Origin: an uncultured bacterium
GTDB lineage: Bacteria > Bacillota_I > Bacilli_A > RF39 > UBA660
Assembly: GCA_947169285.1 (NCBI GenBank)
Contig: CAMVPB010000001.1
Location: 77,226-141,225 of the forward strand
Direction of reading: 5' to 3'
Length of the DNA stretch: 64,000 nucleotides
In this document: piece by piece, positions 9,043-36,382 of the stretch
Position numbering within the stretch: the first letter of the stretch is position 1
Layout of the letters: each line of letters opens with the position of its first letter
Translations under genes and position numbers: made by a program
Notes under the pieces: model-generated
The model's input: the letters and a program-made list of their open reading frames with translations, nothing else
Databases searched by the model: none
What the model was told of the DNA's origin: nothing

Positions 9043-9339
9043 TTATTCTTTTATATCCATAGAACTATCATTCCATACAATATTAGAATAAATCTTTCTA
9101 TTATCTTTCTCATACTTAATAAATATTAAATTCTTATTGCTTAGTTTTGATAAACTTTTTGATATTGTTCTTGTTGATAATTCTAATTGTTGTGATAAGT
9201 ATTTATTAGTAGCTATACACACTCTTTTTATACACAGAGATACAATCATACCCATAACTAATTTATCAGTTGAATTTAGCTCTAATTTCTTTAAATCTGA
9301 TAATGGTACAATTGCATATTTCATATAATTACCTTTCAT
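9043..9339 (-). CDS. small winged-helix DNA-binding protein (HTH_36-like; candidate iteron/centromere-binding or replication regulator)
   Basis: 98 aa; ...VPLSDLKKLELNSTDKLVMGMIVSL...ATNKYLSQQLELSTRTISKSLSKLSNKNLIFIKYEK...; typical N-terminal wHTH of phage/plasmid replication proteins; iteron arrays lie in its upstream region. Confidence 0.5.
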   Translation of the reverse strand: MKGNYMKYAIVPLSDLKKLELNSTDKLVMGMIVSLCIKRVCIATNKYLSQQLELSTRTISKSLSKLSNKNLIFIKYEKDNRKIYSNIVWNDSSMDIKE

Positions 9340-9430
9340 CCATATATAATCCCCCTTTCTTTTGACAATAAAAAAGACCTGTGTTTCTTTTCACAAGTCC
9401 AATTCAAATCAAATAATTCTAAATGGATTT

Positions 9431-9467
9431 ACTTATAATTCTTCCACTTTACCATATCTTACCATGA
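9431..9467 (+). repeat. ~37-bp direct repeat copy 1 (ACTTATAATTCTTCCACTTTACCATATCTTACCATGAC); copy 2 at ~9678..9714
   Basis: 34/37 identical copies 247 bp apart, each followed 16 bp later by a five-unit 12-bp tandem array. Confidence 0.8.
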
Positions 9468-9483
9468 CTTTTATTGTTTGTAA

Positions 9484-9543
9484 ATGCAAATTTTCATGCA
9501 ATTTTATATGCAAGATGAGATGCAACTTCACATGCAAAATATT
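9484..9543 (+). repeat. tandem array A: five 12-bp repeats with ATGCAA core (ATGCAAATTTTC/ATGCAATTTTAT/ATGCAAGATGAG/ATGCAACTTCAC/ATGCAAAATATT)
   Basis: Exact 12-bp periodicity of ATGCAA at ~9484, 9496, 9508, 9520, 9532. Confidence 0.85.
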
Positions 9544-9730
9544 TGTAATTATTTCTTTGGAATACCGCATAAATACTAAGGAAATAAGCTTTTCATTATT
9601 TTAATTTTTTGAACAAAAATAATAGTCAAAAAATATAGTAAAAATATTTTTACTAATTTTTTTAAAATGATAAAGATGCTTATAATTTATCCACTTTACC
9701 ATATCTTATCATGCTTATAGGCACTTGTAC

Positions 9731-9790
9731 AGGAAAATTTTCAGGAAGTTTGAGAGGAAGTTATAGAGGAAGTATAAGAAGAAGTATCAC
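9731..9790 (+). repeat. tandem array B: five 12-bp repeats with AGGAAG core (AGGAAAATTTTC/AGGAAGTTTGAG/AGGAAGTTATAG/AGGAAGTATAAG/AAGAAGTATCAC)
   Basis: Exact 12-bp periodicity at ~9731, 9743, 9755, 9767, 9779; same position relative to direct-repeat copy 2 as array A relative to copy 1. Confidence 0.85.
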
Positions 9791-9939
9791 ATACACTTTT
9801 ATATGAAGTTTGTTTACATAAAAATTGGTATAAAGCTCTATAAATATTTATTAAATTGGTCTTCATTAATTATAATTATTTTCAAATTTTATTAGCAAAA
9901 AATGTATAAAAAAATAGAGGGTAATATCTTTAAAAATTA

Positions 9940-10548
9940 TTAAGATATAATATTGTATCCCTCATGCAAAATATATTTTTTACCATTGTATGCAAGCGCA
10001 TATTCTTCTGTTATATATTCACCTTTCATACATCTAATATAAAAATCTTCTAATTTGCTCTTATTTTGCTTTAAAAATTGTAATATTTTTTTTCTTTCTT
10101 TTACAGAAAATATATCTTCAAATTTAACGGAGTCATTTTTCATCTGTGTCATTGTGCTTAAAACAATTCTTACAAATTGCTTCTTTCTATAAGAATATAT
10201 ATGAACATGTGGTCTATTATGTGGTTCGCCATTGTTTACTCTTATTATAGCAATATCGTCAAAATCACAACCAGCACCTATTCCATATACATATAATAGT
10301 TTTATTTTTTTAAAATCATAATTAAAATTTTTTAAAAACTTTAACAGTTTAAAATCTAGTCTTGCTTTTTGCTCGACACCATTATGTTCAAAAGCAAACA
10401 ATGAAATCAAATTATCGCTTTCATCTTCTTTAAAAAGATCATTGTGTATTGAATCATACAAATCTTTTATTAACGTATTATTATCACAACTATACTTGTA
10501 TTCAAAAACTCCATCATTACGCGTATATATTTCAAACTCTAATTCCAT
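9940..10548 (-). CDS. hypothetical protein with DUF4160-like segment (..GEPHNRPHVHIY..)
   Basis: 202 aa; central NNGEPHNRPHVHIYSYRKKQF resembles the PPHfHv core of DUF4160; last gene of the UDG-containing minus-strand cluster. Confidence 0.3.
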   Translation of the reverse strand: MELEFEIYTRNDGVFEYKYSCDNNTLIKDLYDSIHNDLFKEDESDNLISLFAFEHNGVEQKARLDFKLLKFLKNFNYDFKKIKLLYVYGIGAGCDFDDIAIIRVNNGEPHNRPHVHIYSYRKKQFVRIVLSTMTQMKNDSVKFEDIFSVKERKKILQFLKQNKSKLEDFYIRCMKGEYITEEYALAYNGKKYILHEGYNIIS

Positions 10549-10646
10549 TCTTATTTATATTCATCCCATCCTAACACTTTGTGTGCCTTCATATAGTAAA
10601 TAATTACTAATTTCAATAAAATACATTTGAAAGCATCAAACTTGAG

Positions 10647-11174
10647 CTATCTATTTAGATTTCTTACTAATCTTTTTACTCTATCTTTACCCAATTCAAG
10701 ATTTTCTTTTTGAATTCTTTCGCTATTTTTATGAACACTGAAATTAAATTTTTCTCTAGTTATTTCTTCCGAATACATTTGCTTTAATTCATCAACCTTC
10801 TTTACATATTCGATAGCCTCTTCATCTGTCATTTTATTTAAATAGTCGGCCGCATCTTCTATGGATACTCTTTCAAATGTTTTAACAATTAATTTTCCTT
10901 TTTTGATTATTCTTAATTTTGCAGCATCTTCTATAGTTGATGCATAACTATGTGGTAACATAGAAAATACTGGGGTTCCGGTCACTATATCTTTTCCAAT
11001 AATTACTGTACTATATTCATCAGGATCAAATCCAAAAGCGCTACACTCGCAAGAGCCATAATACCCTTTATCTTTTTTCAGTACATATCTATATTCAATT
11101 AAAAGATCAAAATTCTTATCTCCACCTAAAATATTACATTTTCCATAATACTTTTCAAACATAAGTTCCTCCAA
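10647..11174 (-). CDS. hypothetical protein
   Basis: 175 aa ORF, no recognisable motif; 2-bp gap to upstream ORF. Confidence 0.4.
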   Translation of the reverse strand: MEELMFEKYYGKCNILGGDKNFDLLIEYRYVLKKDKGYYGSCECSAFGFDPDEYSTVIIGKDIVTGTPVFSMLPHSYASTIEDAAKLRIIKKGKLIVKTFERVSIEDAADYLNKMTDEEAIEYVKKVDELKQMYSEEITREKFNFSVHKNSERIQKENLELGKDRVKRLVRNLNR

Positions 11175-11175
11175 A

Positions 11176-11718
11176 TTAATTATTTTTTTTCATTTTTCTA
11201 GTAAATGATTGTAGTTCAACTTCATCACATTTACTATAATCTTCATTTTGAATTGAAAGATCAACAAGAGTTCTTAATTCAAAATCATCTAAATCTAAAT
11301 GATATTTTTTAAATTCTTCATCTATTTTAACAATTTCAGCAATTACATCATGAGCTTCTTTAGAAATTAATTTACCATCGTTATAATCTTCTAAAGATAA
11401 ATTAAATAAATCCTCAGACATTTGTAAGCTTAACTTTTCATTAAGTGCTATTCTCATATTAAATAGTTCTCTTAAATTAGAGTATTCTCTCTCAGTAATA
11501 ACACCTGTTTCTTGTAATCTATTAATTTTATATACTTGAATAATATCTTTATAGGTATAATCAATATAATTAGGCACACAAACATCTCTTTTATAATCAT
11601 CATCTTTAACAACTCTATAGCAGTCAGCGCCAACTTTAGTTGATGATAATCCCCCTCTTATTCTAAGACTTATATAATCAAACATGTCTTTTAAGAATTC
11701 TTTCTCATTATTATCCAT
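11176..11718 (-). CDS. hypothetical protein
   Basis: 180 aa ORF, acidic, no recognisable motif. Confidence 0.4.
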   Translation of the reverse strand: MDNNEKEFLKDMFDYISLRIRGGLSSTKVGADCYRVVKDDDYKRDVCVPNYIDYTYKDIIQVYKINRLQETGVITEREYSNLRELFNMRIALNEKLSLQMSEDLFNLSLEDYNDGKLISKEAHDVIAEIVKIDEEFKKYHLDLDDFELRTLVDLSIQNEDYSKCDEVELQSFTRKMKKNN

Positions 11719-11818
11719 AATTTCCTCCTATGTCTCAATATTATATATAAGTTATTTATGAAGTTCAATATTTTTTAATCATTTAAAAAATCATAGTTTT
11801 TGTTTAAACTATGACTAA

Positions 11819-12394
11819 TTATTTATGTAATGTTCTAACTTGCTCTTTTATAACATTTTCAAAAATTTTTGCATTTCCTTTATAACTTAATGGTGAAATT
11901 GGACTGGGATGATATATTGGTATTACAACAAACTCATTATAATTATAACATTGTCCAACTACATCACCAAATTTTGCATATTTAGTTTCTAATAACGTCC
12001 TTGTCACTACATCTCCTAAAGTAAGTACTACTTGTGGATTAATAATTTGTAATTGTTCTAATAAATACTTTCTACAATTGTTACTACACTCTTTTAAAAA
12101 CTTTCTATCTTTTGGGAAACACTTAATTGCCTCTAAAAAATATATATCATCTAAAGTATAATCAATTAGTTTTAATAATTTTTGTAAAACAACTCCAGAT
12201 GGTAATAATTTATAATTTTCATCATACCATGCTATTCCACTTTTTCTCCATCCATTATTTGCAGGTGCCTCTCCTAATATAACAATATCATTTTCTTTGC
12301 CAATTGAAACTGTTTTACTTTGAGGAAATTTTTCTACCAAATCTATACATAAATTACATTTATGTATTTCATTATCTATATCTGACAATTTCAT
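11819..12394 (-). CDS. uracil-DNA glycosylase superfamily protein (family 4-like, probable Fe-S type)
   Basis: 191 aa; motif A GEAPANNGWRKSG (GE[A/G]PG-type), motif B HPSPISPLS, N-terminal CNLC and later C..C residues consistent with family-4 4Fe-4S ligands. Confidence 0.7.
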   Translation of the reverse strand: MKLSDIDNEIHKCNLCIDLVEKFPQSKTVSIGKENDIVILGEAPANNGWRKSGIAWYDENYKLLPSGVVLQKLLKLIDYTLDDIYFLEAIKCFPKDRKFLKECSNNCRKYLLEQLQIINPQVVLTLGDVVTRTLLETKYAKFGDVVGQCYNYNEFVVIPIYHPSPISPLSYKGNAKIFENVIKEQVRTLHK

Positions 12395-12506
12395 TATTTT
12401 CTCCTTTATTTCTCACTATTATATACAAAGTTTTTATTTATTTCAATAAAAACCATTTAAAAAGCCACAGTCTTTTAACTGTAGCTTAAAAATTAAAATA
12501 TATTTA

Positions 12507-13133
12507 TTATGATCTCTTAAGAACTTTTGAAAGATCATCTTTTACAATTTTACCGCCATGTTCTAAATGATAGCCATCTTTTATTAAATAATTCTGTTTT
12601 AAACTAGGTCCATCATCTTCACATAATTCTAAATGGTAACCATCTTGAACTACATAAGAATAATTCTCATCTTCTTCATATTGTTCTAAATGATATCCTT
12701 CTTCTGGTGTATATGTAGATTCAACTAAATTTAATTTTTCAAGACTCCAACATTTATCAGTTTCTTCATCTAAAACATATCCAGCAGGTGCAACAGCGTA
12801 TGAAATATAAACAGTTTTATAACAACGCCCATCTTTACCTAAAATAAATCCTGCTGGTGCACAATATCTAGTTTCACCATCTTGTGTTATTGTAATTGGT
12901 TCTGTGTAAATAGTTGACTTTGTATAAAATCTATTTCCTTCTATAACATATCCGTTAACATAATCACTTTTCATAGCTTTAGAATCATTCTTTTTTTGAA
13001 GAGCTTTTGCACCGCAAAGTGTTAATCCTAAAGCTAGTGCAATACTATCAATAGCAATAGCAGTTTTTCTTAATACTTTAGATATCCTTTCTCCTTTATC
13101 AATTTCTAAAATTTCATAATTTTTATTTTTCAT
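12507..13133 (-). CDS. membrane-anchored protein with internal repeats (C-x-PAG-[FY]-x-L x2; [ED]GYHLE x3)
   Basis: 208 aa; hydrophobic segment AIAIDSIALALGLTLCGAKAL; repeats visible in translation. Confidence 0.4.
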   Translation of the reverse strand: MKNKNYEILEIDKGERISKVLRKTAIAIDSIALALGLTLCGAKALQKKNDSKAMKSDYVNGYVIEGNRFYTKSTIYTEPITITQDGETRYCAPAGFILGKDGRCYKTVYISYAVAPAGYVLDEETDKCWSLEKLNLVESTYTPEEGYHLEQYEEDENYSYVVQDGYHLELCEDDGPSLKQNYLIKDGYHLEHGGKIVKDDLSKVLKRS

Positions 13134-13217
13134 TTTAAAATATTTCCCCCTTTTAAAAAGTGTTTATATTATACCAAAAAACGTGTTAAAAGTCAATTTT
13201 AACCTCATTTTTTCTCT

Positions 13218-14117
13218 CTAGACATAGTTTATCTTTCGAATAATTTCTATAAGTTTTTTAGTACTAAAATTAGGTAAATGATTTTTTGATAATGCAACGC
13301 CTATGCATCTGCTTGGTATATTTTCTTTTATCTTTAATTCAAATAATTCTTTATTTTTTATTCTATCCTTAACATATTCTTTAGTTACATATCCAATTCC
13401 AAATCCGATTTTAGCAAATTCAACAACTAATGAATAGCTTGCAAGTTCAATATTAGGTTTAAGTACTACTCCATTTTTTCTTGCAATTTCATCTAAGAAC
13501 TCTCTAGTGTTAGAACCTTTCGATTGTAAAATTAAAGGATAATTATTTAAATCTTTCAAAGAAATTTCTTTATTAACTAATTCTTTATATTTACCATTTA
13601 CTACAAAACAATCATTTATTCTCTTACACTTCATTATTTGGATATCACTACCATAGTTTTTATCATTCAAATTTAATATCATTAAATCAATTAACCCGTT
13701 TTTTAGCTTTGATATTAAATCATTAGCAGTATTTGTTACAATTTGTATATTAATTTTAGGATGTAATAAATGAAATTCTTCTAAATAAGGAAGTAAAAAC
13801 TCTTTAGTTAGAGTTGCACTTATACCAATTTTAATACATCCTGTTTCTAGATTAATTAGATCAGTAAATTTATTTTCAGCATTATTAATATATTCAATTG
13901 CTTGCTTGATATAATTATAGAATTCTTCACCCTCTTCTGTAAGAATAACTCCTCTTTTAGTTCTAATGAATAATTGACCACCAAGTTGATCTTCTAAATT
14001 CTTAATTGATTTACTGATAGCAGGCTGTGAAATATTTAATTCTTCACTCGCTTTAGTAATATTTCCCTTATTTGCCACAACATAAAAAATTCTATACAAT
14101 TCAAAATCTATATTCAT
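13218..14117 (-). CDS. LysR-family transcriptional regulator
   Basis: 299 aa; N-terminal HTH ...KASEELNISQPAISKSIKNLEDQLG..LF.R.. typical of LysR. Confidence 0.85.
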   Translation of the reverse strand: MNIDFELYRIFYVVANKGNITKASEELNISQPAISKSIKNLEDQLGGQLFIRTKRGVILTEEGEEFYNYIKQAIEYINNAENKFTDLINLETGCIKIGISATLTKEFLLPYLEEFHLLHPKINIQIVTNTANDLISKLKNGLIDLMILNLNDKNYGSDIQIMKCKRINDCFVVNGKYKELVNKEISLKDLNNYPLILQSKGSNTREFLDEIARKNGVVLKPNIELASYSLVVEFAKIGFGIGYVTKEYVKDRIKNKELFELKIKENIPSRCIGVALSKNHLPNFSTKKLIEIIRKINYV

Positions 14118-14203
14118 AATAACCTCCAGTTATGATAAACATAATAAATATGTATTTTAATTATATAATAAATAACATTATAATACAAGTAGACAGGGAG
14201 GTA

Positions 14204-14791
14204 ATGAATATGATTATAGGTGTTTGTGGAAAATCCGGTAGTGGTAAGTCAACTTTATCTAATCAAATAGTAAAGTCAACTGACAATGCTGTACATTTAG
14301 ATATTGATAAAGTTGGACATAAAGTATTACTATTACCAGAAGTAAAAGATGAATTAATAAAAGCATTTAAAAGTATAATCGATGACTGTAATAACATCGA
14401 TAGAAAAAAACTTGGTGAAATTGTATTTGATTCAAGAAATAAAATGAATAAACTATCTGATATAACATGGAAATATATGCAAATAGAAATTGATAACTTT
14501 TTGAATGAAAATAAAAGTAAAACAATAATTTTAGACTGGATACTACTACCACACACAAAATATTTTAACATGTGTAATATTAAAATACTTTTAGATATCC
14601 CATATGAAATTAGAAAACAAAGAGCAATAAAAAGAGATAATATAACTGAAGAATTATTTGACTTAAGAGAAGAATCAAGTATTAACTTTAATGAAAAAGA
14701 TTTTGATTATGTACTAAAAAATAATGAGAAAGAGGTAACAAAAAAGCTGGTGAATCATTATGACAAAGGTATTGTATCCAGGAAGTTTTGA
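14204..14791 (+). CDS. coaE: dephospho-CoA kinase
   Basis: P-loop IGVCGKSGSGKSTL, ...VHLDIDKVGHKVL...FG....DRKKLGEIVF pattern of CoaE; immediately precedes and overlaps coaD. Start placed at ATG ~14204/14210 after GGGAGG RBS rather than the track start at 14132. Confidence 0.7.
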   Translation: MNMIIGVCGKSGSGKSTLSNQIVKSTDNAVHLDIDKVGHKVLLLPEVKDELIKAFKSIIDDCNNIDRKKLGEIVFDSRNKMNKLSDITWKYMQIEIDNFLNENKSKTIILDWILLPHTKYFNMCNIKILLDIPYEIRKQRAIKRDNITEELFDLREESSINFNEKDFDYVLKNNEKEVTKKLVNHYDKGIVSRKF

Positions 14792-15254
14792 TCCAATCAC
14801 TAAAGGACATATGAATATCATTGATCAAGCTAGTGAATTATTTGATGAAGTAATAGTAGCAGTCATGCAAAATCCATTAAAGAAAACTGGACTTTTTACT
14901 TTAGAAGAAAGAAAAGAAATCATTGATCATTTATATCAAAAAGCAAATAATGTAAAGGTTATATTAGGTAGTGGAGCTGCAGTTGATGTTGCAGTTCTTA
15001 ATAAATGTAAAGGAATTATTAGAGGACTTAGAAGTTTAAGTGACTATGATTATGAAGTTCAGTTACAACAAATAAATAAAGAAATATCAGATAATAAAGT
15101 AAATACAATTTGTTTATTTGCAGATAAAGAATATCAATTTGTATCATCAAGTATGGTTAAAGAAATTTTTAACCTAGGCAAAGATATTTCAAAATATGTA
15201 GATCCTGTAGTTCAAGAAAAAATGCTAGTAAAGAAAAGGAGTTTAATAAGATGA
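14760..15254 (+). CDS. coaD: phosphopantetheine adenylyltransferase
   Basis: MTKVLYPGSFDPITKGHMNII... canonical PPAT N-terminus; 164 aa. Confidence 0.9.
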   Translation: MTKVLYPGSFDPITKGHMNIIDQASELFDEVIVAVMQNPLKKTGLFTLEERKEIIDHLYQKANNVKVILGSGAAVDVAVLNKCKGIIRGLRSLSDYDYEVQLQQINKEISDNKVNTICLFADKEYQFVSSSMVKEIFNLGKDISKYVDPVVQEKMLVKKRSLIR

Positions 15255-16012
15255 GCAAAATAGCAATTACTCCACTAGGAACAGTATCACCTTATACAAA
15301 AGAAAATATGAATTGCCCTGGATTTTTAGCTGAATACAATAATCAAAAGATATTGTTAGATTGTGGTAATGGAATAACAAGGTTATTAAAATTTCCAAAA
15401 GTTTTAGAAAATTTAAATGTAATTATTACACATTATCATAAAGACCATTTCGGCGACATAGGTGCTATTCAATATGCATCATATGTATATCATAATTTAG
15501 GAACGCTTAACAGAAAAATTAAAATATATTTACCTAAAAATGATTTTGCATTTAATAAAAAAACAATAGTATCAAATAATGAAAGCTATGCAGAATATTT
15601 TGATATAAGTGATAATTCTAATTATTCATTAAAAGATTTAAATATATCTTTTCAAGATAATAAATCGCATAGTATTGAATCATACATGATAAAATTACAA
15701 AATAAAGATTTCAAAATAGTATATACATCTGATGTTGGTACTATTAACTTTGATAAATTAATAGAATTTTGTAAAGATGCTGATTTAATCATTTGTGAAA
15801 GTTCTTTTCTAAAAAAACATAGCACAAATAATAAATGCCACATTACAGCTTATGAAGCTGGTATTTTAGCAAGTGAATCTAATGCTAAAAGATTATTACT
15901 AACACATTTCTGGCCTGAAGAAGATAAAAACTTATATTTAAAAGAAGCTAAACAAAACTATGAAAATGTAGAAATTGCTAAAGAAGGTAAAAAGATTATT
16001 TTAAAGAGATAA
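15251..16012 (+). CDS. MBL-fold metallo-hydrolase
   Basis: HYHKDHFGD (HxHxDH) motif; 253 aa; 4-bp overlap with coaD. Confidence 0.7.
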   Translation: MSKIAITPLGTVSPYTKENMNCPGFLAEYNNQKILLDCGNGITRLLKFPKVLENLNVIITHYHKDHFGDIGAIQYASYVYHNLGTLNRKIKIYLPKNDFAFNKKTIVSNNESYAEYFDISDNSNYSLKDLNISFQDNKSHSIESYMIKLQNKDFKIVYTSDVGTINFDKLIEFCKDADLIICESSFLKKHSTNNKCHITAYEAGILASESNAKRLLLTHFWPEEDKNLYLKEAKQNYENVEIAKEGKKIILKR

Positions 16013-16018
16013 AAAACT

Positions 16019-16047
16019 GTGATGAAAATATCACAGTTTTATTTCTA
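16019..16047. terminator. bidirectional terminator hairpin CTGTGAT-gaaaat-ATCACAG with flanking A/T runs
   Basis: Seen in sequence between convergent MBL and NERD genes. Confidence 0.6.
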
Positions 16048-16094
16048 ATATATCCTTATCTTTATGTCTATTATTCTTTTTCTTTCTCTATTAA

Positions 16095-16871
16095 CTAATT
16101 TTTTGTAAAATTACATTTCGGATAATTTGAACATCCAGTAAAAGTTCCGTATTTTCCATTTCTAATAACTAGCTGACCTCCACATTTTGGGCATATCATA
16201 TTATTAATCTTTGTTTCCGTTTCATTTCTTTTATTCCTCGCATTTAAAACATGTTCTTTTCTTTTTTCTTTATCAACTATATTTAGTGTAGATATTTGAT
16301 TATAAACATTATCAACATTAATGTTTTTTTCTATATTGCTTAATTCTAATATTTTATTAGCTAAATCTTTTCTTTGAATAACTATACTATTTACATCAAT
16401 TCTCAAATCTGATTGATTAGTAAAACAAACAATTGATGTTAAATTTTTTTCATTAATATTTAATGCTTCACTAATAGATTTTATATGACCATAATTTTGG
16501 TGTATAGGATTTTTTAATTTATATTTCTTGCTACCTAAATGTTGATACCAATAGTAATCATTTTCTTTTCCAGTAATTAATCCTTTATAGCATTTTGTCT
16601 CTATAACAAATATTCCATATTTAGAAATAACAATGTGATCTATTTGGTGAGTTATACCATTTATTTCTAACATTACATCATCTAATACTTTATAAATATC
16701 ATTGGGCAATTCTTTTAATTTTTGGTCTACCGTCCATTCTCCAACATCGCCTATTACCTTAATTCTTAAAAAGAAGATTACAATACCTATTATGCCAATT
16801 ATAACAAATAGCCAAAATAGAGGATTATTTAAAAACAAAGCTTTTGTTAATTCATTTACAAATTCTTCCAT
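16095..16871 (-). CDS. NERD-domain protein with C-terminal topoisomerase-type C4 zinc ribbon
   Basis: 258 aa; N-terminal TM segment, NERD core (...IDHIVISKYGIFVIETK...), C-terminal CPKCGGQLVIRNGKYGTFTGCSNYPKC. Confidence 0.7.
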   Translation of the reverse strand: MEEFVNELTKALFLNNPLFWLFVIIGIIGIVIFFLRIKVIGDVGEWTVDQKLKELPNDIYKVLDDVMLEINGITHQIDHIVISKYGIFVIETKCYKGLITGKENDYYWYQHLGSKKYKLKNPIHQNYGHIKSISEALNINEKNLTSIVCFTNQSDLRIDVNSIVIQRKDLANKILELSNIEKNINVDNVYNQISTLNIVDKEKRKEHVLNARNKRNETETKINNMICPKCGGQLVIRNGKYGTFTGCSNYPKCNFTKN

Positions 16872-16874
16872 GCT

Positions 16875-17774
16875 CTATAAATTCTCCTTTAATATATTTA
16901 TAAATTTAGTAGCTGTAAAAGTTGGAACACTTCCTTTTTTAATAGCATACCCTAATCTTCTTTTAGGTATTTCTATATCTGTTTTAATTTCGTATAAGGT
17001 TTTATTTAATTTTTCTTTTATAAACTCTTTTGTTAAAATTGCAATACCAAAATTGTTTTCAGCAAGTTTTGTTAATAACCCATGACTAACAACTTCTATT
17101 TTAGGATTTAATTCTAGTTTGTTAACCTTTAATAAATTATCAAAATTAGTTCTTGTAATTGAAGGAGATTTTTGAATAATAATATCTTCTCCTAATAACT
17201 CTTTAATATTTTTATAATTGTTATTTTTATATTTTGTTCCGCCAACAAATATGTCGTTTAATTCACTTATTATTTTATAATCTATATCTTTAATATCTTG
17301 CTTTGGTATAGCGGTTATTATAATATCAAAAGAACCATTTCTTAAACTTTTAATTAAATTTTCAGTTAAATCATTAACGATATTAATATTTATATTTGGA
17401 TAAGAATCATGAAACTTTTTTAAATATGGCATTAAATAATATTCTGAAATAGTTGTAGTAGATCCTATATTGATAACTCCTTCTTCTAAATTTTTAAGAG
17501 ATGTGAATTTATTAGTACCATTTATAAAGTAATTCATACCTTCTTTAATATAATTAAATAATTCCTCTCCCTCGTTTGTTAAAATTACACCTTTGGGAGT
17601 TCTAGTAAATAATTTTCCACCTAATTCATCTTCTAAAGTTTTAATAGATTGGGTTACTGCAGGTTGGGTAATCATTAATTTTTCAGCGCCTTTAGAAATA
17701 CTCTTTTCAACTGCTACTTCATAAAAAACTTTAAATAATTCAAAATTTACATTCATGTTTTCTCCTATAAGCAA
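16875..17774 (-). CDS. LysR-family transcriptional regulator
   Basis: 299 aa; HTH ...KGAEKLMITQPAVTQSIKTLEDELGGKLFTRT...; divergent from 17855 operon. Confidence 0.85.
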   Translation of the reverse strand: MLIGENMNVNFELFKVFYEVAVEKSISKGAEKLMITQPAVTQSIKTLEDELGGKLFTRTPKGVILTNEGEELFNYIKEGMNYFINGTNKFTSLKNLEEGVINIGSTTTISEYYLMPYLKKFHDSYPNININIVNDLTENLIKSLRNGSFDIIITAIPKQDIKDIDYKIISELNDIFVGGTKYKNNNYKNIKELLGEDIIIQKSPSITRTNFDNLLKVNKLELNPKIEVVSHGLLTKLAENNFGIAILTKEFIKEKLNKTLYEIKTDIEIPKRRLGYAIKKGSVPTFTATKFINILKENL

Positions 17775-17784
17775 AACTTATATC

Positions 17785-17801
17785 GAATATAAGCAATATA
17801 T
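17785..17801. promoter_or_regulatory. LysR-box-like palindrome CTTATAT-cga-ATATAAG in the LysR/operon divergent intergenic region
   Basis: Perfect 7-bp inverted repeat seen in sequence, T-N11-A compatible. Confidence 0.4.
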
Positions 17802-17854
17802 ATTTGTATTATATCATTAAGAATTATATACTACAAGTGAAAGAGGGAAATAAT

Positions 17855-18478
17855 ATGTATAAAAAATTTATTGAATTAGCAAAAGAAAAAAGAAAATTAA
17901 ATAAAGAAATACAAGATTTAGATAATAATATTACTGAAATCACTGAATTTATTGATAGAACAAGTTATTTTAAAAGTAAGAAAAGTTTGAAAGCAATTAG
18001 AGAAATTAAAAATTATTTAGAACAAGCGAAAATATCTATGGAAGAAAAAAGCACAAGAAAAGATGAAATTGACAAATTTCTATACAAGGAGTGTAAGCAT
18101 CCCATTGTTATAAGTGATGAAACTTCATGCTGTAAATTTTGCCCAATATGTGGTTATCAGTATTACTACTATGGAATTATTGATGAATATAAACCAATTT
18201 ATATAAAAGTTGATGATTGTGTAATATATTATGAACTAGAAAAAGCATTATGCTATGGAGATTTACATAAATACAGTTTATCAAGTGAACCAGAAAAGTT
18301 TATTATGAATTCAGTCAAAAATATCACAAAATTTATAAATGAAGCAATAGATAGCGAAGATACCCATTCTTTTATAAATGAAAATATTGATGAATTATTA
18401 GAAATTGAATATGATGACAGAAATATTATAGATACAAGAAGTCATAAAAAACTAGTAAATATAAGGAGAATGATATAA
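17855..18478 (+). CDS. coiled-coil + C-H-C-C zinc-ribbon protein A (unknown function)
   Basis: Start moved to MYKKFIE (AAAGAGGG RBS); motif KECKHPIVISDETSCCKFCPICG; paralogous architecture to next gene. Confidence 0.55.
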   Translation: MYKKFIELAKEKRKLNKEIQDLDNNITEITEFIDRTSYFKSKKSLKAIREIKNYLEQAKISMEEKSTRKDEIDKFLYKECKHPIVISDETSCCKFCPICGYQYYYYGIIDEYKPIYIKVDDCVIYYELEKALCYGDLHKYSLSSEPEKFIMNSVKNITKFINEAIDSEDTHSFINENIDELLEIEYDDRNIIDTRSHKKLVNIRRMI

Positions 18479-19617
18479 TGAAGAAGAAAGAAATACTATA
18501 TTTAATAAATAGATACAAAACCATTATTAATAATAATGGATTATTAAATCCAATAAAATTAACTATGCATGGAAGAATTTGTAATATTTTAAAAAACGAA
18601 GATGAGTGGTTTCCTAATGTAAGCGAATTAAAAGAACAATTTGAAGTTTTAAAACAAGAATTATTACAAGCAATTGATGAAAATGAAAAATTAATAAGAG
18701 ATACTGCTATAGTAAAAAAATGTGATCATCAAGTTAGAATAAAATATTATAATCCTTTCGCCGCTTATTATGAATGTGTGTTATGTGGAAAATTTAGCCC
18801 AAATAGGTTTTTTGAGTCTAAATATGATAATAATTACACTGTTAACTTTATTGGTGGAAATGTAGAAGATGATGATTATATTGAAAATGAAAAATATCGC
18901 GAAAAAATTTTAAATATTATATTAAAAATATTAAAAAAATTTAATGATGATGATGAAGTTGATTTAGTAGCTGAATTTTCTAAAATATCAAAAGAATACA
19001 AAAAATATATTTCCTATATAGATACTAATCCAAGAAGAGAAGAAAACTATATTTTAATAATAGGTGGCACTAATAAATTTTATTTAAATAATGAAGATAA
19101 AATATTTATAAATGAAGACTATGAATCAAATACATTTGATTTTTTGGATTACTTTAGAAAATTGTTAAATACTAAAGTTGGAATTATCGAAAATGAAAAA
19201 GAACTTAGTAATAGAAAATATGATGATATGAAGAAAGATAAACAACTTGAATTCATTAAATATGATACCATAGAATCTTTAAATAAATATTTAAATGAAT
19301 TAAAAGAAATACCATTTAAAATTATTATTAATTTATCTAGTTTATTTGATTTTAGTGTTGAAGATGATGAAATAGTAAAGCATCCATATAATTTAAATCT
19401 TCAAGAAATGTTCCCTGGTAGTCATATAATTAATATTTCAAAACTATCTTCTAAATCGATTGAAGAAATTAAATCTTTTCTTTCAAAACAAAAAGAAATA
19501 TCATACGTAAAGCCAGATGATGACGAAAATTATTATTATGTTCAACATGATGAGGTATTAGAAAGCAATATAAATAGTACATGTGAAAGTATTAAAGAAT
19601 TAGTAAGAAGGCATTAA
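18478..19617 (+). CDS. coiled-coil + C-H-C-C zinc-ribbon protein B (unknown function)
   Basis: 379 aa; KKCDHQVRIKYYNPFAAYYECVLCG; start overlaps stop of previous gene (ATAATGA). Confidence 0.55.
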   Translation: MKKKEILYLINRYKTIINNNGLLNPIKLTMHGRICNILKNEDEWFPNVSELKEQFEVLKQELLQAIDENEKLIRDTAIVKKCDHQVRIKYYNPFAAYYECVLCGKFSPNRFFESKYDNNYTVNFIGGNVEDDDYIENEKYREKILNIILKILKKFNDDDEVDLVAEFSKISKEYKKYISYIDTNPRREENYILIIGGTNKFYLNNEDKIFINEDYESNTFDFLDYFRKLLNTKVGIIENEKELSNRKYDDMKKDKQLEFIKYDTIESLNKYLNELKEIPFKIIINLSSLFDFSVEDDEIVKHPYNLNLQEMFPGSHIINISKLSSKSIEEIKSFLSKQKEISYVKPDDDENYYYVQHDEVLESNINSTCESIKELVRRH

Positions 19618-19619
19618 AA

Positions 19620-20201
19620 ATGAGTAATTTAGATAATAAAATAAAATCACTTATTAAAAGTGTTAAAGCAAAATGCATATTTTCAGAAGAAGTATTTAAA
19701 GGCAATTTTATAACATTAATTAAAGAATCATATATTTTACCAAATAATAAAATATTGAATCGTGAAAGAATTATTAAAAACAAAAATAAACAAGCAGTAA
19801 TTATAATAGCCATTACAACTGAAAATAAATTTCTTATTGTATCCCAAAACAGAATCAATGATATTGTGAGTCTTGAATTTCCATCAGGATATGTTGAAAA
19901 CGGAGAAAGTGTGATTGAAGCTGCTAAAAGAGAACTAGTTGAAGAAACTGGTTACACATCAAACAATATTAAAAAAATAGATAGTTATTACGCATCTATA
20001 GGAATTGATAGTTCAATTATTAACATTGTTATAGCATTTGATTGCATAAAAGTAAGTAGTCAAAACTTAGGTGAAACAGAATATATTAAATATAGTGATT
20101 TTACTTTTAAAGAATTAGAAAAACTTATTGATCTAAATTATATAAACAGTAGTAGCAATAGATTAGCTTTTTATGAACTAAAAGCAAAAAATCTATTTTA
20201 A
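19620..20201 (+). CDS. Nudix hydrolase
   Basis: Perfect Nudix box GYVENGESVIEAAKRELVEETGY (Gx5Ex7REUxEExGU); 2-bp gap from upstream gene. Confidence 0.85.
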   Translation: MSNLDNKIKSLIKSVKAKCIFSEEVFKGNFITLIKESYILPNNKILNRERIIKNKNKQAVIIIAITTENKFLIVSQNRINDIVSLEFPSGYVENGESVIEAAKRELVEETGYTSNNIKKIDSYYASIGIDSSIINIVIAFDCIKVSSQNLGETEYIKYSDFTFKELEKLIDLNYINSSSNRLAFYELKAKNLF

Positions 20202-20263
20202 TATACTTAATTATGATATAGATAATTTTTTAATAAAATCATTTAAAAATACAATATTATTCT

Positions 20264-21328
20264 CTAAAATTTACTTAGTAGATCTATCAACTTTGTATTC
20301 TTATAAATACTTTCTCTTCCTACTTTTTCATATTCGAGTAATCCAGCATCAACTAATTGATTTAAATAAACAGCTGCTGTTTGTCTAGTAACGCCACATC
20401 TTTGTTCAATATAATTGATTCTAGTGTATACTTCATAAAATAAAGAATCTAATAATTCATCAGAATATATTTTAGGTAATTTAGTCATAAATTCTTCTTT
20501 ATAAGATTCCATTTCACTTTGAATTCGTTTGATTAATTCAATTGTATACTTAGATGTTTCTTCTACACCTTTTAAAATATATATAATCCAATCTTCATAA
20601 TTGTTTTTTTCTCTAAACTCTGTAAACAATTTATAATATATATCTTTATTCTTATTTATATAATTACTTAAATATAAAATTGGGCTATCCAATAAACTAT
20701 TTAATACTAAATATAGAACGTTTAATATTCTACCTGTTCTCCCATTTCCATCATAAAATGGATGAATTGTTTCAAATTGATAATGAATTAACGCCATTTT
20801 AATTAATGGATCTGTCTGATCATCAAATTCATTAATATAATCTTCTAAATTTTTAAGTAAATCTCTTATTTCTTTTTCTGATTGTGGTGGAGTATAAATG
20901 ATTTCACCCGTTTTACTATTTACTAAATTAGTACCTGGCGTTTTTCTTATTCCAGCTTTATTATGTTCAATCATTGACTGCAATTTAACTAATAAATTAG
21001 TATTGATAAATCCTTTATCTTTTATAAACTCATATCCAAACCATATTGCGCTTCTATAATCAACAACTTCTTTAGCTGCTTCCTCTTTAAAGCCACTTTC
21101 AGTTAATACTTTATAAATACTATCATGTGTAGTAACAATATTTTCAATTGCACTGCTATCTTTAGCTTCATTTATTGTAATAGCATTAATTAAAATATGT
21201 TGATTAGGAATTGAATTAGCAAAGCCTTTTAATTCAGCAAGTGATCTTGAAGCCTCGTTTAATGCATCTAGAATCCTTGGTGTCTTTAAATCATAATCAT
21301 TAAATGGTAATAATTTCATCATTATCAC
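20264..21328 (-). CDS. Fic/DOC family protein with C-terminal winged helix
   Basis: Fic motif HPFYDGNGRTGR; 354 aa; C-terminal HTH-like RQTAAVYLNQLVDAGLLEYEK. Confidence 0.85.
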   Translation of the reverse strand: MIMMKLLPFNDYDLKTPRILDALNEASRSLAELKGFANSIPNQHILINAITINEAKDSSAIENIVTTHDSIYKVLTESGFKEEAAKEVVDYRSAIWFGYEFIKDKGFINTNLLVKLQSMIEHNKAGIRKTPGTNLVNSKTGEIIYTPPQSEKEIRDLLKNLEDYINEFDDQTDPLIKMALIHYQFETIHPFYDGNGRTGRILNVLYLVLNSLLDSPILYLSNYINKNKDIYYKLFTEFREKNNYEDWIIYILKGVEETSKYTIELIKRIQSEMESYKEEFMTKLPKIYSDELLDSLFYEVYTRINYIEQRCGVTRQTAAVYLNQLVDAGLLEYEKVGRESIYKNTKLIDLLSKF

Positions 21329-21335
21329 CTCCTAC

Positions 21336-21423
21336 ATGTTAATAATACAACATTTTTTTAACATATACAATAAATATGTTAAATTTTTTACACTTTTTTA
21401 ACATTTTATTAGAAAATGTTAAA
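21336..21423. promoter_or_regulatory. three AACAT/ATGTT inverted repeats upstream of fic (ATGTTaataatacAACAT; TTAACATAT-acaataa-ATATGTTAA; TTTAACATTTT-attagaa-AAAATGTTAAA)
   Basis: Seen in sequence in the Fic 5' region; candidate operator sites. Confidence 0.4.
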
Positions 21424-21585
21424 TGTAATAAATAAATATTATAAAGTTCACAATCATATTTTATACTTAAATTTATGCCTTGTTTATTTATTTGGTGCAA
21501 TTCTATCTTCCCTGACCAGGGTCTATAACAATGCCTTTTAAAGCCATTTAAATCACCTAATATACTATATGAAAAAAGCACTTTA

Positions 21586-23103: not shown

Positions 23104-23194
23104 ATAATCACCCTAATTAATATTATACAATAATTATCAATTATTGCTTTTAAATTATTTAAATCTTATAATAAGTATCAATCAAGGAGCCAAT

Positions 23195-23824
23195 ATGGAA
23201 AAAATAATAACTAAAGTTGAACCTATTATAATATATCCTACATGTATTTTAGAAACAGGAATGCAAGATGATTGCAATACATGTTTGGAAAAAAATAGTT
23301 GTACTTCACCAAGATGCATGTGCGTTAAGCCTTATAAAAATCACAAATATGGTTGCCCAAACTATGGAAAATTAGATACATGTCCACCTAAAATTCCATC
23401 TATGTATGATCAAATATTTTATACAGATGACGTATATGCAGTAATTACTAAATTTAATTTATATGAGTATTATAATAAAAGAAGAAAAAACAGACCAGAT
23501 CTTCCAGAAGGACAAATTAGAAATTTAAGATGTTGGCAGCCAATAACTATTAAAGAAAATGATATAGCAGTTAGCGAGTTTTATCACAAACACACAAATA
23601 AAAATGATTATGTTTCAACAAGACTATTAGAATGTATGGGAGTTGATGTTATAAACACATTAAAAAAAGTTGGATTAACTATCTCTTTTCCGATTGAAGA
23701 ATATGTTTATAGAGTTTCATTTTTAGCTAAAGTAATTAATGAGGGATTAAATAAATATGGATTTGAAGTGTATGAAGATACAAAAAAGAAAATAAAAACA
23801 TTAAGAAAAGTAAGTATTAAATAA
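23195..23824 (+). CDS. cysteine-rich putative metal-binding protein (unknown function)
   Basis: Start at MEKIITK after AAGGAG; N-terminal ~60 aa contain ~9 Cys (CILETGMQDDCNTCLEKNSCTSPRCMCVKPYKNHKYGCPNYGKLDTCPP). Confidence 0.5.
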   Translation: MEKIITKVEPIIIYPTCILETGMQDDCNTCLEKNSCTSPRCMCVKPYKNHKYGCPNYGKLDTCPPKIPSMYDQIFYTDDVYAVITKFNLYEYYNKRRKNRPDLPEGQIRNLRCWQPITIKENDIAVSEFYHKHTNKNDYVSTRLLECMGVDVINTLKKVGLTISFPIEEYVYRVSFLAKVINEGLNKYGFEVYEDTKKKIKTLRKVSIK

Positions 23825-33058: not shown

Positions 33059-33315
33059 TTGTAAAATAAAAAAAATATGATATAATCTAACTAGTAAAAA
33101 CGAGGAAGAAGAAGAGTATTTTAAAGATTCTTTATAGAGAGTTAGTGGATGGTGAAAACTAATAAGATATTTAAAAGAATAAAGACTTTGGAGTTGAATA
33201 CCGTATACAAGGTATTACGTTAATCGCGTTAAGATAAGAGATATTATAAATTTATAATATAAATTAAGGTGGTACCACGGTTTCTTCGTCCTTTTTCCAA
33301 GGACGTTTTTATTTT
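33059..33315 (+). promoter_or_regulatory. promoter (TTGTAA-16-TGaTATAAT) plus T-box riboswitch leader with terminator, upstream of lysS
   Basis: T-box sequence AATTAAGGTGGTACCACGG at ~33262..33280; AGAGAG/GGTGAAAAC stem-I elements; terminator CGTCCTT-tttcc-AAGGACG+TTTTTATTTT at ~33287..33315; candidate Lys specifier (AAG or AAA) in stem I. Confidence 0.75.
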
Positions 33316-35920: not shown

Positions 35921-36382
35921 ATGAGAAATTTTGAAAAAATAAGTTATAAACAATTTAAAAAAGATATAAAAGATGATAAAAAATTATATGATAGTTATTC
36001 ACTTCCTTCAAGAAATTCAACAAATGCTGCTGGTTATGATTTTTACCTTATAGAAGATATTGAAATAAGGCCAAACGAAATAATAAAGATTCCAACAGGT
36101 ATTAAGGCTTATTTTGAGCCTAATGAAGTTTTATTTCTAATAGTTAGAAGTTCAACTGGGTTTAAATACAATATAAGACTTGTTAACCAAGTTGGAGTAA
36201 TTGATTCAGACTATTATAATAACAAAGATAATGAAGGCCATATATTTATAAAAATTCAAAACGAAGGTAAAGAAACAATTAAATTCAAAACTGGAGATCA
36301 CATAGTTCAAGGAATATTTATTAACTTCTTAAAAACAGATAGTGATAAAAATATAGAATCAGAAAGAAAATCAAGTTATTAA
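35921..36382 (+). CDS. dut: dUTP diphosphatase
   Basis: ...AAGYDFY..., RSSTGFKYNIRLVNQVGVIDSDY motifs of trimeric dUTPase; 153 aa. Confidence 0.75.
   Translation: MRNFEKISYKQFKKDIKDDKKLYDSYSLPSRNSTNAAGYDFYLIEDIEIRPNEIIKIPTGIKAYFEPNEVLFLIVRSSTGFKYNIRLVNQVGVIDSDYYNNKDNEGHIFIKIQNEGKETIKFKTGDHIVQGIFINFLKTDSDKNIESERKSSY

Follow-up and report, generated by a model that had tools for sequence, protein, structure and literature searches.

Brig1, an alpha-glucosyl-hmC DNA glycosylase of the UDG superfamily, acts against phages and has 42 reported non-redundant homologues, mostly in Actinobacteria, two tested ones being about 50% identical to Brig1; its Glu147 stands where the UDG of S. tokodaii (Sto) has N82 (PMC11078745). 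Two further systems extend this precedent. Brig2 is an integron UDG-like protein that is active against thymidine-modified phages, and Brig3-BapA consists of a 5hmC glycosylase and a deglucosylating operon partner, which shows that a UDG-fold enzyme can work with a partner. UDG-fold defense glycosylases are often located on mobile elements (PMC11078745; bioRxiv 10.1101/2025.10.29.685425; Brig3). In the family 4 enzyme Tth UDGa, the roles of N80, H155, F54, and N89 have been described, with N80 forming bidentate hydrogen bonds to N3/O4 of uracil (PMC5387724). Here, we analyzed a UDG-superfamily gene and its three neighbors in a 64,000-nucleotide stretch of DNA from an uncultured bacterium (referred to as the window). 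An original prediction, whose account of the Brig1 mechanism was accurate (PMC11078745), had proposed that the glycosylase and its neighbors could form a defense system targeting modified bases or, alternatively, represent DNA-repair cargo of an accessory element.

The UDG gene and its clade

The 191-aa ORF is an intact and real gene encoding an Fe-S-type member of the UDG superfamily. The protein matches PF03167 in Pfam with an E value of 4.9e-20 and 72.5 bits, above the cut-off of 24.3, and its AF2 model (pLDDT 81.7) adopts the alpha/beta UDG fold. The top Foldseek matches of this model are 1ui1, 4zby, 1l9g, and UdgX, and the probability is 1.00 for these as well as for MUG and TDG. The protein contains motif 1 (GEAPANNGWRKSG), W56, E88, D96, and motif 2 (H162-PSP). 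In an alignment of 121 sequences, GEAPANNG, HPSP, and Cys13, -16, -92, -103, and -107 are invariant, as is Glu88. The protein also matches phrog_4335 among the PHROG profiles, and the dN/dS of the gene against its homologs is 0.21 to 0.26. C13, C16, C92, and C107 align with the [4Fe-4S] ligand cysteines of family 4, and a cluster is predicted. The family-4-like motifs and the cysteines compatible with an Fe-S cluster, on which the original prediction was built, are both borne out.

Family 4 (Thermus thermophilus 1UI0, Sulfolobus tokodaii 4ZBY, and Thermotoga maritima 1L9G) is the best match in sequence and fold, with a phmmer E value of about 1e-9 and a Foldseek E value of about 1e-10 at a TM score of about 0.64. 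The window UDG shares with family 4 the spacing of the Fe-S cysteines (CxxC ... C-x14-C), the GE(A)P of motif 1, the stacking aromatic residue, a length of ~190 aa, and the His of the HPS in motif 2, which is the invariant H162 of IYHPSP and corresponds to Tth H155, the residue that stabilizes the leaving base. However, the identity to family 4 is only 20 to 24%, and the scores fall below the cut-offs of both curated family-4 HMMs (64.2 bits against 125.3 for TIGR00758 and 64.4 against 250 for NF040953). Compared with the family-4 motif 1, GE(G/A)PG with its E-G/A doublet, the window UDG reads GEAPA-NNGWRKSG, in which G41, E42, A43, and P44 are conserved and the remaining loop differs, ending in ANNGWRKSG where family 4 has G-x-x-E-D. 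It also has an insertion of ~5 residues after the aromatic residue, and Cys103 is an extra invariant cysteine. The uracil-reading Asn of family 4 (Tth N80 and Sto N82) is the invariant Glu88 in the window clade, a correspondence given by four alignments (three from HMMER and one from MAFFT), and this replacement suggests that the substrate may not be uracil. The literature searched yielded no account of a UDG family that has Glu here, a result that does not prove absence. UdgX of Mycobacterium smegmatis (6AIL and others) has the same Fe-S UDG fold and forms the second Foldseek group (E value of about 5e-9), but the window UDG reaches 26 bits with TIGR03914, for which the cut-off is 190, and is 16 to 18% identical to UdgX. 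Judged by these sequence comparisons, the clade lies outside canonical family 4 and is best described as a distinct Fe-S clade whose closest groups are family 4 (UDGa) and UdgX.

A homolog search returned 1227 matches, the best 120 clusters of which are 64 to 81% identical to the window UDG. The clade is very tight and comes from very-low-GC uncultured gut and rumen Bacilli, the window's own group. In the eight contexts examined, out of more than 1200 homologs, the gene is solitary, and its surroundings are all chromosomal-looking and mutually different, including purA-purB-pyrG-UDG-DUF4256-AdaZn, a RecG neighborhood, and HD_3/deoxyribosyltransferase/NUDIX. The order PPDK-x-UDG, with UDG downstream of ppdK, is found in three genomes. 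Between loci L001 and L007, the UDG is 83 to 87% identical, which is about the identity of the PPDK C terminus in the same genomes (80%) and indicates a core-like rate. Some homologs are fusions with YunG or Ada_Zn_binding. The search of phage and plasmid collections gave no close relatives, all matches being <31% identical and those in phages 22 to 30%, and in BFVD the structural neighbors are UDGs of phages and fusions of UDG to polymerase. A search of genome contigs with the UDG yielded two MAG loci only. The window and L007 each have a LysR gene close to the UDG; synteny was rejected, with 34% identity and different flanks.

The carrier element and the layout of the cluster

The carrier of the cluster is a large-serine-recombinase integrative element, as established by the recombinase at its end and the target gene that rejoins in frame (Table 1), which agrees with the accessory location proposed originally. 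The recombinase matches the integrase family phrog_95 (E value of 2.4e-99), with CcrB and XisF-like NCBIfam matches. The two halves of the amidase gene (21547->21513 and 1270->1) rejoin to form an ORF that covers positions 1 to 174 of the 174 in the Amidase_3 profile and reads ...IVIDPGHGGKDPGA... at the putative attB (the 1270/21513 junction); the ends of the element are exact to within the crossover dinucleotide. Neither an empty site nor a second copy was found. The GC content is 24.5% in the element and 25.3% in the rest of the window. Defense-type genes on the same element encode SoFic (PADLOC, 2e-113), NERD+Zn-ribbon, and NUDIX proteins. The element also encodes an SSB-like protein and a DnaD_N/replication-initiator-like HTH protein, adjoining an iteron-like noncoding region. 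Within the element, the UDG is in the cargo half; three unrelated genes and the 600 bp of noncoding DNA downstream of the 202-aa DUF4160 gene stand between it and these replication genes. The dUTPase that had been noted elsewhere in the chromosome is likewise present (Table 1).

Table 1. Positions of the genes, predicted signals, and element boundaries in the window
Feature	Position	Strand	Basis
Amidase_3+LysM gene, 3' part, runs off the window	1..1270	-	Split-gene reconstruction
Integrated element, ~20.2 kb, carrying the cluster	1271..21512		Split amidase gene rebuilt
Large serine recombinase (integrase), left end of element	1310..2914	-	phrog_95, NCBIfam
SSB-like protein	8463..8927		
DnaD_N/replication-initiator-like HTH protein	9043..9339		
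202-aa protein, N-terminal ubiquitin-like beta-grasp then DUF4160 (DhiT toxin-type) domain	9940..10548	-	Pfam (DUF4160)
orf175 (175 aa), rare gene, function unknown, 1 nt after orf180	10647..11174	-	6 homolog clusters
orf180 (180 aa), rare orphan gene, function unknown	11176..11718	-	2 homolog clusters
Promoter-like site for orf180/orf175, TTGAAC-17-TATAAT	11740..11768	-	Consensus match
Intrinsic-terminator hairpin + U6, immediately 3' of the UDG stop codon	11785..11816	-	Predicted folding
UDG-superfamily glycosylase gene (191 aa)	11819..12394	-	PF03167, predicted fold, invariant residues
Promoter-like site for UDG, TTGAAA-17-TATAAT	12418..12446	-	11/12 consensus matches
Intrinsic-terminator hairpin + U-run, 3' of the upstream 208-aa membrane-protein gene	12459..12487	-	Predicted folding
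Amidase_3+LysM gene, 5' fragment (MALKGIVIDPG...)	21513..21547	-	Split-gene reconstruction
dUTPase	35921..36382	+	PF00692, E 2e-14

The four same-strand ORFs have the geometry of a compact cluster headed by the UDG, as originally described, but the predicted signals do not fit a shared transcript. The hairpin behind the upstream membrane-protein gene (11-bp stem, -14.3 kcal/mol, z -5.05) appears to insulate the UDG against transcription from upstream. Downstream of the UDG and ahead of orf180 come a second predicted terminator hairpin (11-bp stem, -11.8 kcal/mol, z -4.1) and a further promoter-like site. The UDG's own promoter-like site is no more than a match to the consensus, of a kind that is not more frequent in this region than in shuffled sequence. 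Given the predicted terminators that flank it and this site ahead of it, the UDG looks like a transcription unit of its own, predicted to be monocistronic. Short intergenic DNA similarities were considered as integron-like cassette boundaries and rejected; inspection and folding identified them as a recurrent intrinsic-terminator sequence.

The three neighboring ORFs

All four cluster ORFs are real genes, since their dN/dS values against homologs are 0.2 to 0.4 (0.29 for orf180). Homologs of orf180 form only 2 clusters among 5.8 billion proteins; those that are 90 to 92% identical adjoin other genes, and no UDG adjoins the homologs at the loci L009 and L025. The relatives of orf175 form 6 clusters, and their contexts (L010, L011, L026, and one 34-kb contig) are without UDG, orf180, and DUF4160 genes. 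One protein among these relatives (P0123) is 100% identical to orf175. For orf175 and orf180, there is no Pfam, NCBIfam, or PADLOC match at E <= 0.01, and their only two PHROG matches are marginal and to families of unknown function.

The 202-aa protein had been called DUF4160-like, and it does score above the Pfam cut-off for this domain (26 bits against 23). DUF4160 is also the domain of the toxin DhiT (DhiTA pair) and of the Menshen effector NsnC; the 202-aa protein differs from DhiT in its additional N-terminal ubiquitin-like domain and C-terminal extension and forms a separate small family of about 45 clusters. A metagenome search for this family yielded only two contigs, both <2 kb, and its context is poorly sampled. 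No DUF2442 antitoxin gene adjoins the DUF4160 gene, orf175 and orf180 being without a Pfam match and the downstream side being noncoding.

PADLOC has no match for any of the four genes, and a search of IMG/VR with each of the four proteins gave no relatives. Across the 27 fetched loci, there was no case in which any two of the four genes occurred together, and the families of the three neighbors, with 2, 6, and about 45 clusters, are tiny compared with that of the UDG (>1200). orf180 and orf175 are not partners of the UDG. The UDG is self-contained and its three neighbors are unrelated passengers; therefore, there is no four-gene defense system here.

Possible roles in repair, defense, and element maintenance

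We consider it likely, with moderate confidence, that the window UDG is a solitary chromosomal repair-type glycosylase captured as cargo of the 20.2-kb element, with the three downstream ORFs as passengers. The outcome named originally as refuting the prediction, tight clustering with housekeeping family-4 UDGs together with neighbors that show no co-occurrence, is essentially what we observe, although the tight clade of solitary chromosomal genes is not the canonical family 4. Of the alternatives offered originally, DNA-repair cargo is the best supported. The context and conservation of the clade suggest a repair role: in low-GC Bacilli the gene would stand alone in the chromosome and behave as core repair genes do, and a single copy would have been picked up by the element that interrupts the cell wall amidase gene. 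The orf180-orf175 pair and the beta-grasp+DUF4160 toxin-like protein downstream would be independent of it. Extrapolating from the homologous Tth UDGa, the enzyme would flip a damaged or modified pyrimidine into its pocket, where W56 would stack on it, H162 and the backbone of E42 would contact O2 and stabilize the leaving base, and D96, at the motif 3 position, would position the attacking water. The product would be an abasic site, which would then pass to host base-excision repair. With Glu88 in place of the N3/O4-reading Asn, the preferred base is probably not plain uracil and may instead carry, on its N3/O4 face, either a positive charge or an amino group. Speculatively, it could be a cytosine derivative such as 3-methylcytosine (alkylation), and the Ada Zn domain fusions of homologs would fit a role in alkylation repair.

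Two observations count against the repair reading, namely, the position of this copy on a mobile element with SoFic, NERD+Zn-ribbon, and NUDIX genes and the Glu at the base-reading position, which the defense glycosylase Brig1 also has. Both, like the existence of UDG-fold defense glycosylases on mobile elements, speak for an anti-phage glycosylase of the Brig1/Brig2/Brig3 type that works as a single gene. It would excise a modified base, for example a modified cytosine recognized through Glu88, from incoming phage DNA and abort replication with the neighbors uninvolved. The Glu keeps the proposed modified-base defense alive for the single gene, its four-gene form having fallen. We nevertheless regard single-gene defense as unlikely; the window UDG has no PADLOC match and no similarity to Brig1 (BLASTP best E value of 7.2 and hhalign probability of 0.6%, with a query from the paper's supplement that may contain OCR errors). 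Moreover, the searches of mobile-element collections gave no relatives, and the clade, unlike the sparse Brig1, is abundant, extremely conserved, and chromosomal, with partial ppdK synteny and a core-gene rate. Slightly less probable again is a combined version in which the clade would be an uncharacterized non-uracil glycosylase family, marked by GEAPANNGWRKSG and Glu for Asn and acting, for example, on a modified or alkylated cytosine, and the element copy, beside the SoFic and NERD genes, would serve as a single-gene defense against phages with modified pyrimidines, an Fe-S counterpart of Brig1.

Maintenance of the element, with the UDG clearing uracil or damaged bases for its replication or transfer together with the SSB-like and DnaD_N-like proteins, seems to us as improbable as single-gene defense. 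These proteins and the iteron-like region are indeed present, UDG domains are attached to many phage DNA polymerases, and the BFVD neighbors and phrog_4335 point in the same direction, but the UDG is cargo-side, separated from the replication genes and in a predicted transcription unit of its own, and its nearest relatives are chromosomal, the phage matches being distant. The chance is very small that the UDG works with orf180, orf175, and the DUF4160 protein, one of which would unmask the base in the manner of BapA or act as a toxin effector. The shared strand, the tight spacing, the precedent of Brig3-BapA, and the toxin/effector domain found in DhiT and NsnC favor such a system; it is largely refuted by the complete lack of co-occurrence in the fetched loci, the close orf180 homologs that adjoin other genes, the predicted terminator and promoter-like site behind the UDG, the tiny partner families, and partners without a recognizable enzymatic domain.

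Once the four-gene system is discarded, the locus still offers a clean case of a serine-recombinase element that has acquired a repair-type gene from the chromosome. Its clade is large, with >1200 database matches, extremely conserved, and entirely uncharacterized, combining the family-4 scaffold and Fe-S cysteines with Glu for Asn. If the substrate is a cytosine-type or alkylated base, the clade would represent a new specificity class in the UDG superfamily. In aerobes, AlkB, an O2-dependent enzyme, repairs DNA lesions. If the gut and rumen Bacilli that carry the clade are strict anaerobes, the clade could suggest how they handle AlkB-type lesions.

In comparison with the described defense glycosylases, taken by their descriptions for Brig2 and Brig3, the window UDG is on mobile DNA like Brig2, whereas, unlike in Brig3-BapA, its candidate partners do not co-occur with it and look transcriptionally separate. 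Brig1 and the window UDG are both single genes of the UDG superfamily on mobile or defense DNA. Motif 1 of Brig1 is of the GLNPG type, and Brig1 lacks the cysteine pattern of Fe-S proteins, the window UDG differing in both respects; Brig1 is sparse, with its 42 reported homologues, whereas the window clade is large, highly conserved, and chromosomal. The two have in common the Glu at the position aligned with Sto N82, a correspondence that runs via this third sequence and not through a direct alignment.

The serine-recombinase insertion and its cargo

On the minus strand, the left end of the window carries an Amidase_3+LysM protein gene without its N-terminus, and the 35-nt piece 21547-21513 codes for MALKGIVIDPG, followed by a stop. 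Joining 21547->21513 to 1270->1 gives ...IVIDPGHGGKDPGA..., an ORF that covers Amidase_3 profile positions 1-174 of 174 and four LysM repeats, with in-frame rejoining across ...CCTGGTCA/CGGCGG.... Because the halves of this cell wall hydrolase gene (1-1270 and 21513-21547) rejoin into one ORF, about 1271-21512 (20.2 kb) is an insertion. The predicted mobile-element location of the UDG-superfamily glycosylase gene (UDG) was thus borne out and refined, with the element splitting the amidase gene and a large serine recombinase (534 aa; phrog_95, E = 2.4e-99) at its left end. The split amidase gene resembles, and may be a case of, the arrangement in which a sporulation or mother-cell gene is interrupted by an intervening element that a serine recombinase excises. 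The G+C content of the element is the same as that of the chromosome (24.5% versus 25.3%; window, ~25%).

The left half of the element encodes two large unknown proteins, an SSB-like protein, and a DnaD_N-like HTH protein. The large proteins have no family match and share a ~120-aa segment (34% identity); the 695-aa protein ends in leucine-rich BspA-like repeats. The 600-bp non-coding stretch in this half is a candidate origin of replication or regulatory region of the element. It contains several iteron-like repeats with TTGCAT and two direct copies of a 35-nt sequence (9432-9466 and 9679-9713), which are 91% identical and lie 247 nt apart. The right half consists of cargo, namely, the UDG and the three ORFs 3' of it (orf180, orf175, and DUF4160-202), a membrane protein, two LysR regulators, coaE, coaD, an MBL-fold hydrolase, a NERD+Zn-ribbon protein, two unknown proteins, a NUDIX hydrolase, and a SoFic-type Fic protein. 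CoA biosynthesis genes passing equivalog cut-offs are unusual cargo for a mobile element (coaE, TIGR00152, 81.7 bits versus 65.6; coaD, TIGR01510, 165.8 versus 103.3), and the MBL-fold hydrolase has a full-length, below-cut-off match to cyclic-nucleotide-degrading phosphodiesterase/Apyc1. The 208-aa protein matches no family; its gene has a terminator of its own and a strong promoter-like sequence (TTGACT-17-TATAAT with TG). Outside the element, a 495-aa ORF is preceded by a T-box leader (RF00230, 123 bits), and the dUTPase gene noted beforehand is present.

Features of the element and of the adjoining chromosome
Feature	Position	Strand	Remarks
743-aa protein	3332-5563	-	
695-aa protein	5972-8059	-	
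Non-coding stretch	9340-9940		Between DUF4160 gene and DnaD_N-like gene
DUF4160-202 (202 aa)	9940-10548	-	DUF4160, 26 bits, just above threshold of 23
orf175	10647-11174	-	Starts 1 nt past orf180 end
orf180	11176-11718	-	Open reading frame supported by dN/dS
Promoter-like site	11768-11740	-	TTGAAC-17-TATAAT
Downstream hairpin	11816-11785	-	U6; -11.8 kcal/mol, z -4.1
UDG (191 aa)	11819-12394	-	PF03167, E = 4.9e-20
Promoter-like site	12446-12418	-	TTGAAA-17-TATAAT
Upstream hairpin	12487-12459	-	11-bp stem, U-run; -14.3 kcal/mol, z -5.05
208-aa protein	12507-13133	-	One N-terminal membrane helix; three DGYHLE-type repeats near C-terminus
CoA/MBL operon	14132-16012	+	Dephospho-CoA kinase, pantetheine-phosphate adenylyltransferase, MBL-fold hydrolase
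NERD nuclease-related domain fused to Top1-type zinc ribbon	16095-16871	-	Defence-type cargo
NUDIX hydrolase	19620-20201	+	Defence-type cargo; weak PADLOC PDC-S07 match
SoFic-type Fic protein, full-length	20264-21328	-	Defence-type cargo; PADLOC 2e-113; NCBIfam 380 bits versus cut-off 550
T-box leader	33094-33296	+	
495-aa ORF	33330-34817		
dUTPase	35921-36382	+	

Transcription signals and co-occurrence of the four ORFs

The reading of this region as a UDG-type protein with three same-strand ORFs, one of them DUF4160-like, holds, and dN/dS values of 0.2 to 0.4 against the nearest homologs indicate that all four are real protein-coding genes. orf180 and orf175 have no Pfam, NCBIfam, or PADLOC match at E <= 0.01, and PHROG gave only two marginal matches, both to families without an assigned function. 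The original prediction that the glycosylase and its three partners form a system is not supported by transcription signals or co-occurrence. One promoter-like site lies between the upstream hairpin and the UDG; the other lies between orf180 and a hairpin directly past the UDG stop codon. Both hairpins were overlooked by a simple terminator scan because their stems are A+T-rich. A near-identical terminator sequence (AGTCATAGTTTAAAACAAAACTATGRCTTTTTAAATG) occurs 3' of many unrelated genes in the window (11785-11816 and 3289-3320) and in related metagenomic contigs (L009, about 3850-3890, 4497-4535, and 5165-5205; L025, about 345-380) and is predicted to be a sequence-conserved, lineage-wide module; the upstream hairpin is related to it yet different.

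In a tblastn search of all element proteins against all 27 fetched loci, no two of the four genes were ever found together. Among 5.8 billion proteins, orf180 has just two homolog clusters; its copies in L009 (90% identical) and L025 (92%) are preceded by a homolog of the window chromosomal gene 23144-23824 and by an unrelated ORF, respectively, and neither locus contains a UDG. orf175 has six homolog clusters, and the four contexts covered (with a HAD hydrolase; with LtaS; on a 34-kb contig with uracil permease and UPRTase; and L026) all lack the UDG, orf180, and the DUF4160 gene. The DUF4160-202 family has ~45 representatives; neither of its two recovered contigs contains a UDG, and in one of them a Fic-like gene lies downstream. 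None of the three ORFs is present in any of the eight distinct UDG contexts covered.

The UDG clade and its base-reading residue

The UDG is probably cargo that the element captured: a solitary Fe-S glycosylase of the repair type, from an uncharacterised clade related to family 4. Its search gave 1227 matches, and the best 120 clusters, all 64 to 81% identical, form a very tight clade; C13/C16, G41-E42, W49, R50, S52, W56, D58, E88, K91-C92, C103, C107, and Y161-H162-P-S-P do not vary among 121 sequences. Where records have a title, they are MAGs named "Bacilli bacterium" or "Mycoplasmataceae bacterium," and the loci have 24 to 29% G+C throughout, as in the window. The contexts look chromosomal and differ among themselves: purA-purB-pyrG-UDG-DUF4256-Ada_Zn (L001 to L003), PPDK-x-UDG (L007 and a 67-kb contig, with PPDK upstream also in L001), PFOR and RecG nearby (L015 to L017), metabolic genes (L014), and HD_3/nucleoside deoxyribosyltransferase/NUDIX (L027). 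Between L001 and L007, the UDGs are 83 to 87% identical and the PPDK C-termini 80%, which is more in keeping with a core gene passed on vertically than with a fast-moving defence gene. No relative above 31% identity turned up among 50,697 phage records or 72,556 plasmids, and IMG/VR yielded none. The L007 MAG ("Mycoplasmataceae bacterium") carries two UDG copies (1056-5064; 90% mutually identical) downstream of ppdK, bracketing two unknown ORFs (451 and 287 aa), which may reflect duplication or insertion beside a chromosomal copy.

The best solved-structure matches belong to family 4 (Tth 1UI0, S. tokodaii 4ZBX, and T. maritima 1L9G; phmmer E about 1e-9). The AF2 model (pLDDT 81.7, confident except for the NNGWRKSG loop) also matches family 4 in Foldseek (E about 1e-10, TM about 0.64, 20 to 24% identity), with UdgX next. 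For none of the specific family models does the protein reach the curated cut-off (64 bits versus 125 and 250; UdgX, 26 versus 190). It keeps the cysteine pattern of the family-4 Fe-S ligands, H162 as the motif-2 His, and an aromatic residue for stacking (W56, aligned with F54/F55), whereas the Asn of Y-I-T-N-V-V-K-C is replaced by Glu88 in Y-F-L-E-A-I-K-C and the water-positioning motif-3 Asn (Tth N89) by D96. In Tth UDGa, the Asn aligned with Glu88 is N80, which forms bidentate hydrogen bonds with N3/O4 of uracil (PMC5387724). The Glu88 equivalence was obtained in three HMMER alignments and in one MAFFT alignment that took in five more sequences of the family-4/UdgX type. An intact catalytic scaffold with an altered base-reading residue suggests that the substrate is not plain uracil, and this Asn-to-Glu change is the single point of real interest. 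When the Asn of UNG is mutated to Asp, the enzyme becomes able to act as a cytosine glycosylase; a carboxylate here would therefore favour an amino-bearing or cationic face. About 22 of the best 120 homologs (including P0044, P0117, and P0120) have an N-terminal YunG domain (PF24585), and three (P0036, P0038, and P0048) have an Ada-like N-terminal extension, with an Ada_Zn_binding (PF02805) score in P0036. In L001, DUF4256 and then a small Ada_Zn_binding protein lie 3' of the UDG. The Ada-like fusions and this neighbour hint at a possible alkylation-damage context, and in view of the fusions an alkylated cytosine, for example 3-methylcytosine, is an appealing if speculative candidate for the substrate.

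Comparison with anti-phage glycosylases

The defence precedent had been described correctly: Brig1, an enzyme of the UDG superfamily, removes alpha-glucosyl-hmC from T4 DNA (PMC11078745). It is extended by Brig2, a UDG-like protein of an integron that acts against thymidine-modified phages (bioRxiv 10.1101/2025.10.29.685425), and by Brig3-BapA, in which a 5hmC glycosylase is paired with a partner from its operon. That the UDG copy on the element acts in defence as a single gene is nevertheless unlikely, since the protein has no sequence similarity to Brig1, carries Fe-S cysteines that Brig1 lacks, and shows a population structure of the housekeeping-gene type; what speaks for such a role is the Glu at the base-reading position, which is common to both enzymes and is their sole specific resemblance. 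In Brig1, this residue is Glu147, which replaces N82 of its closest structural relative, the S. tokodaii family-4 UDG (PMC11078745).
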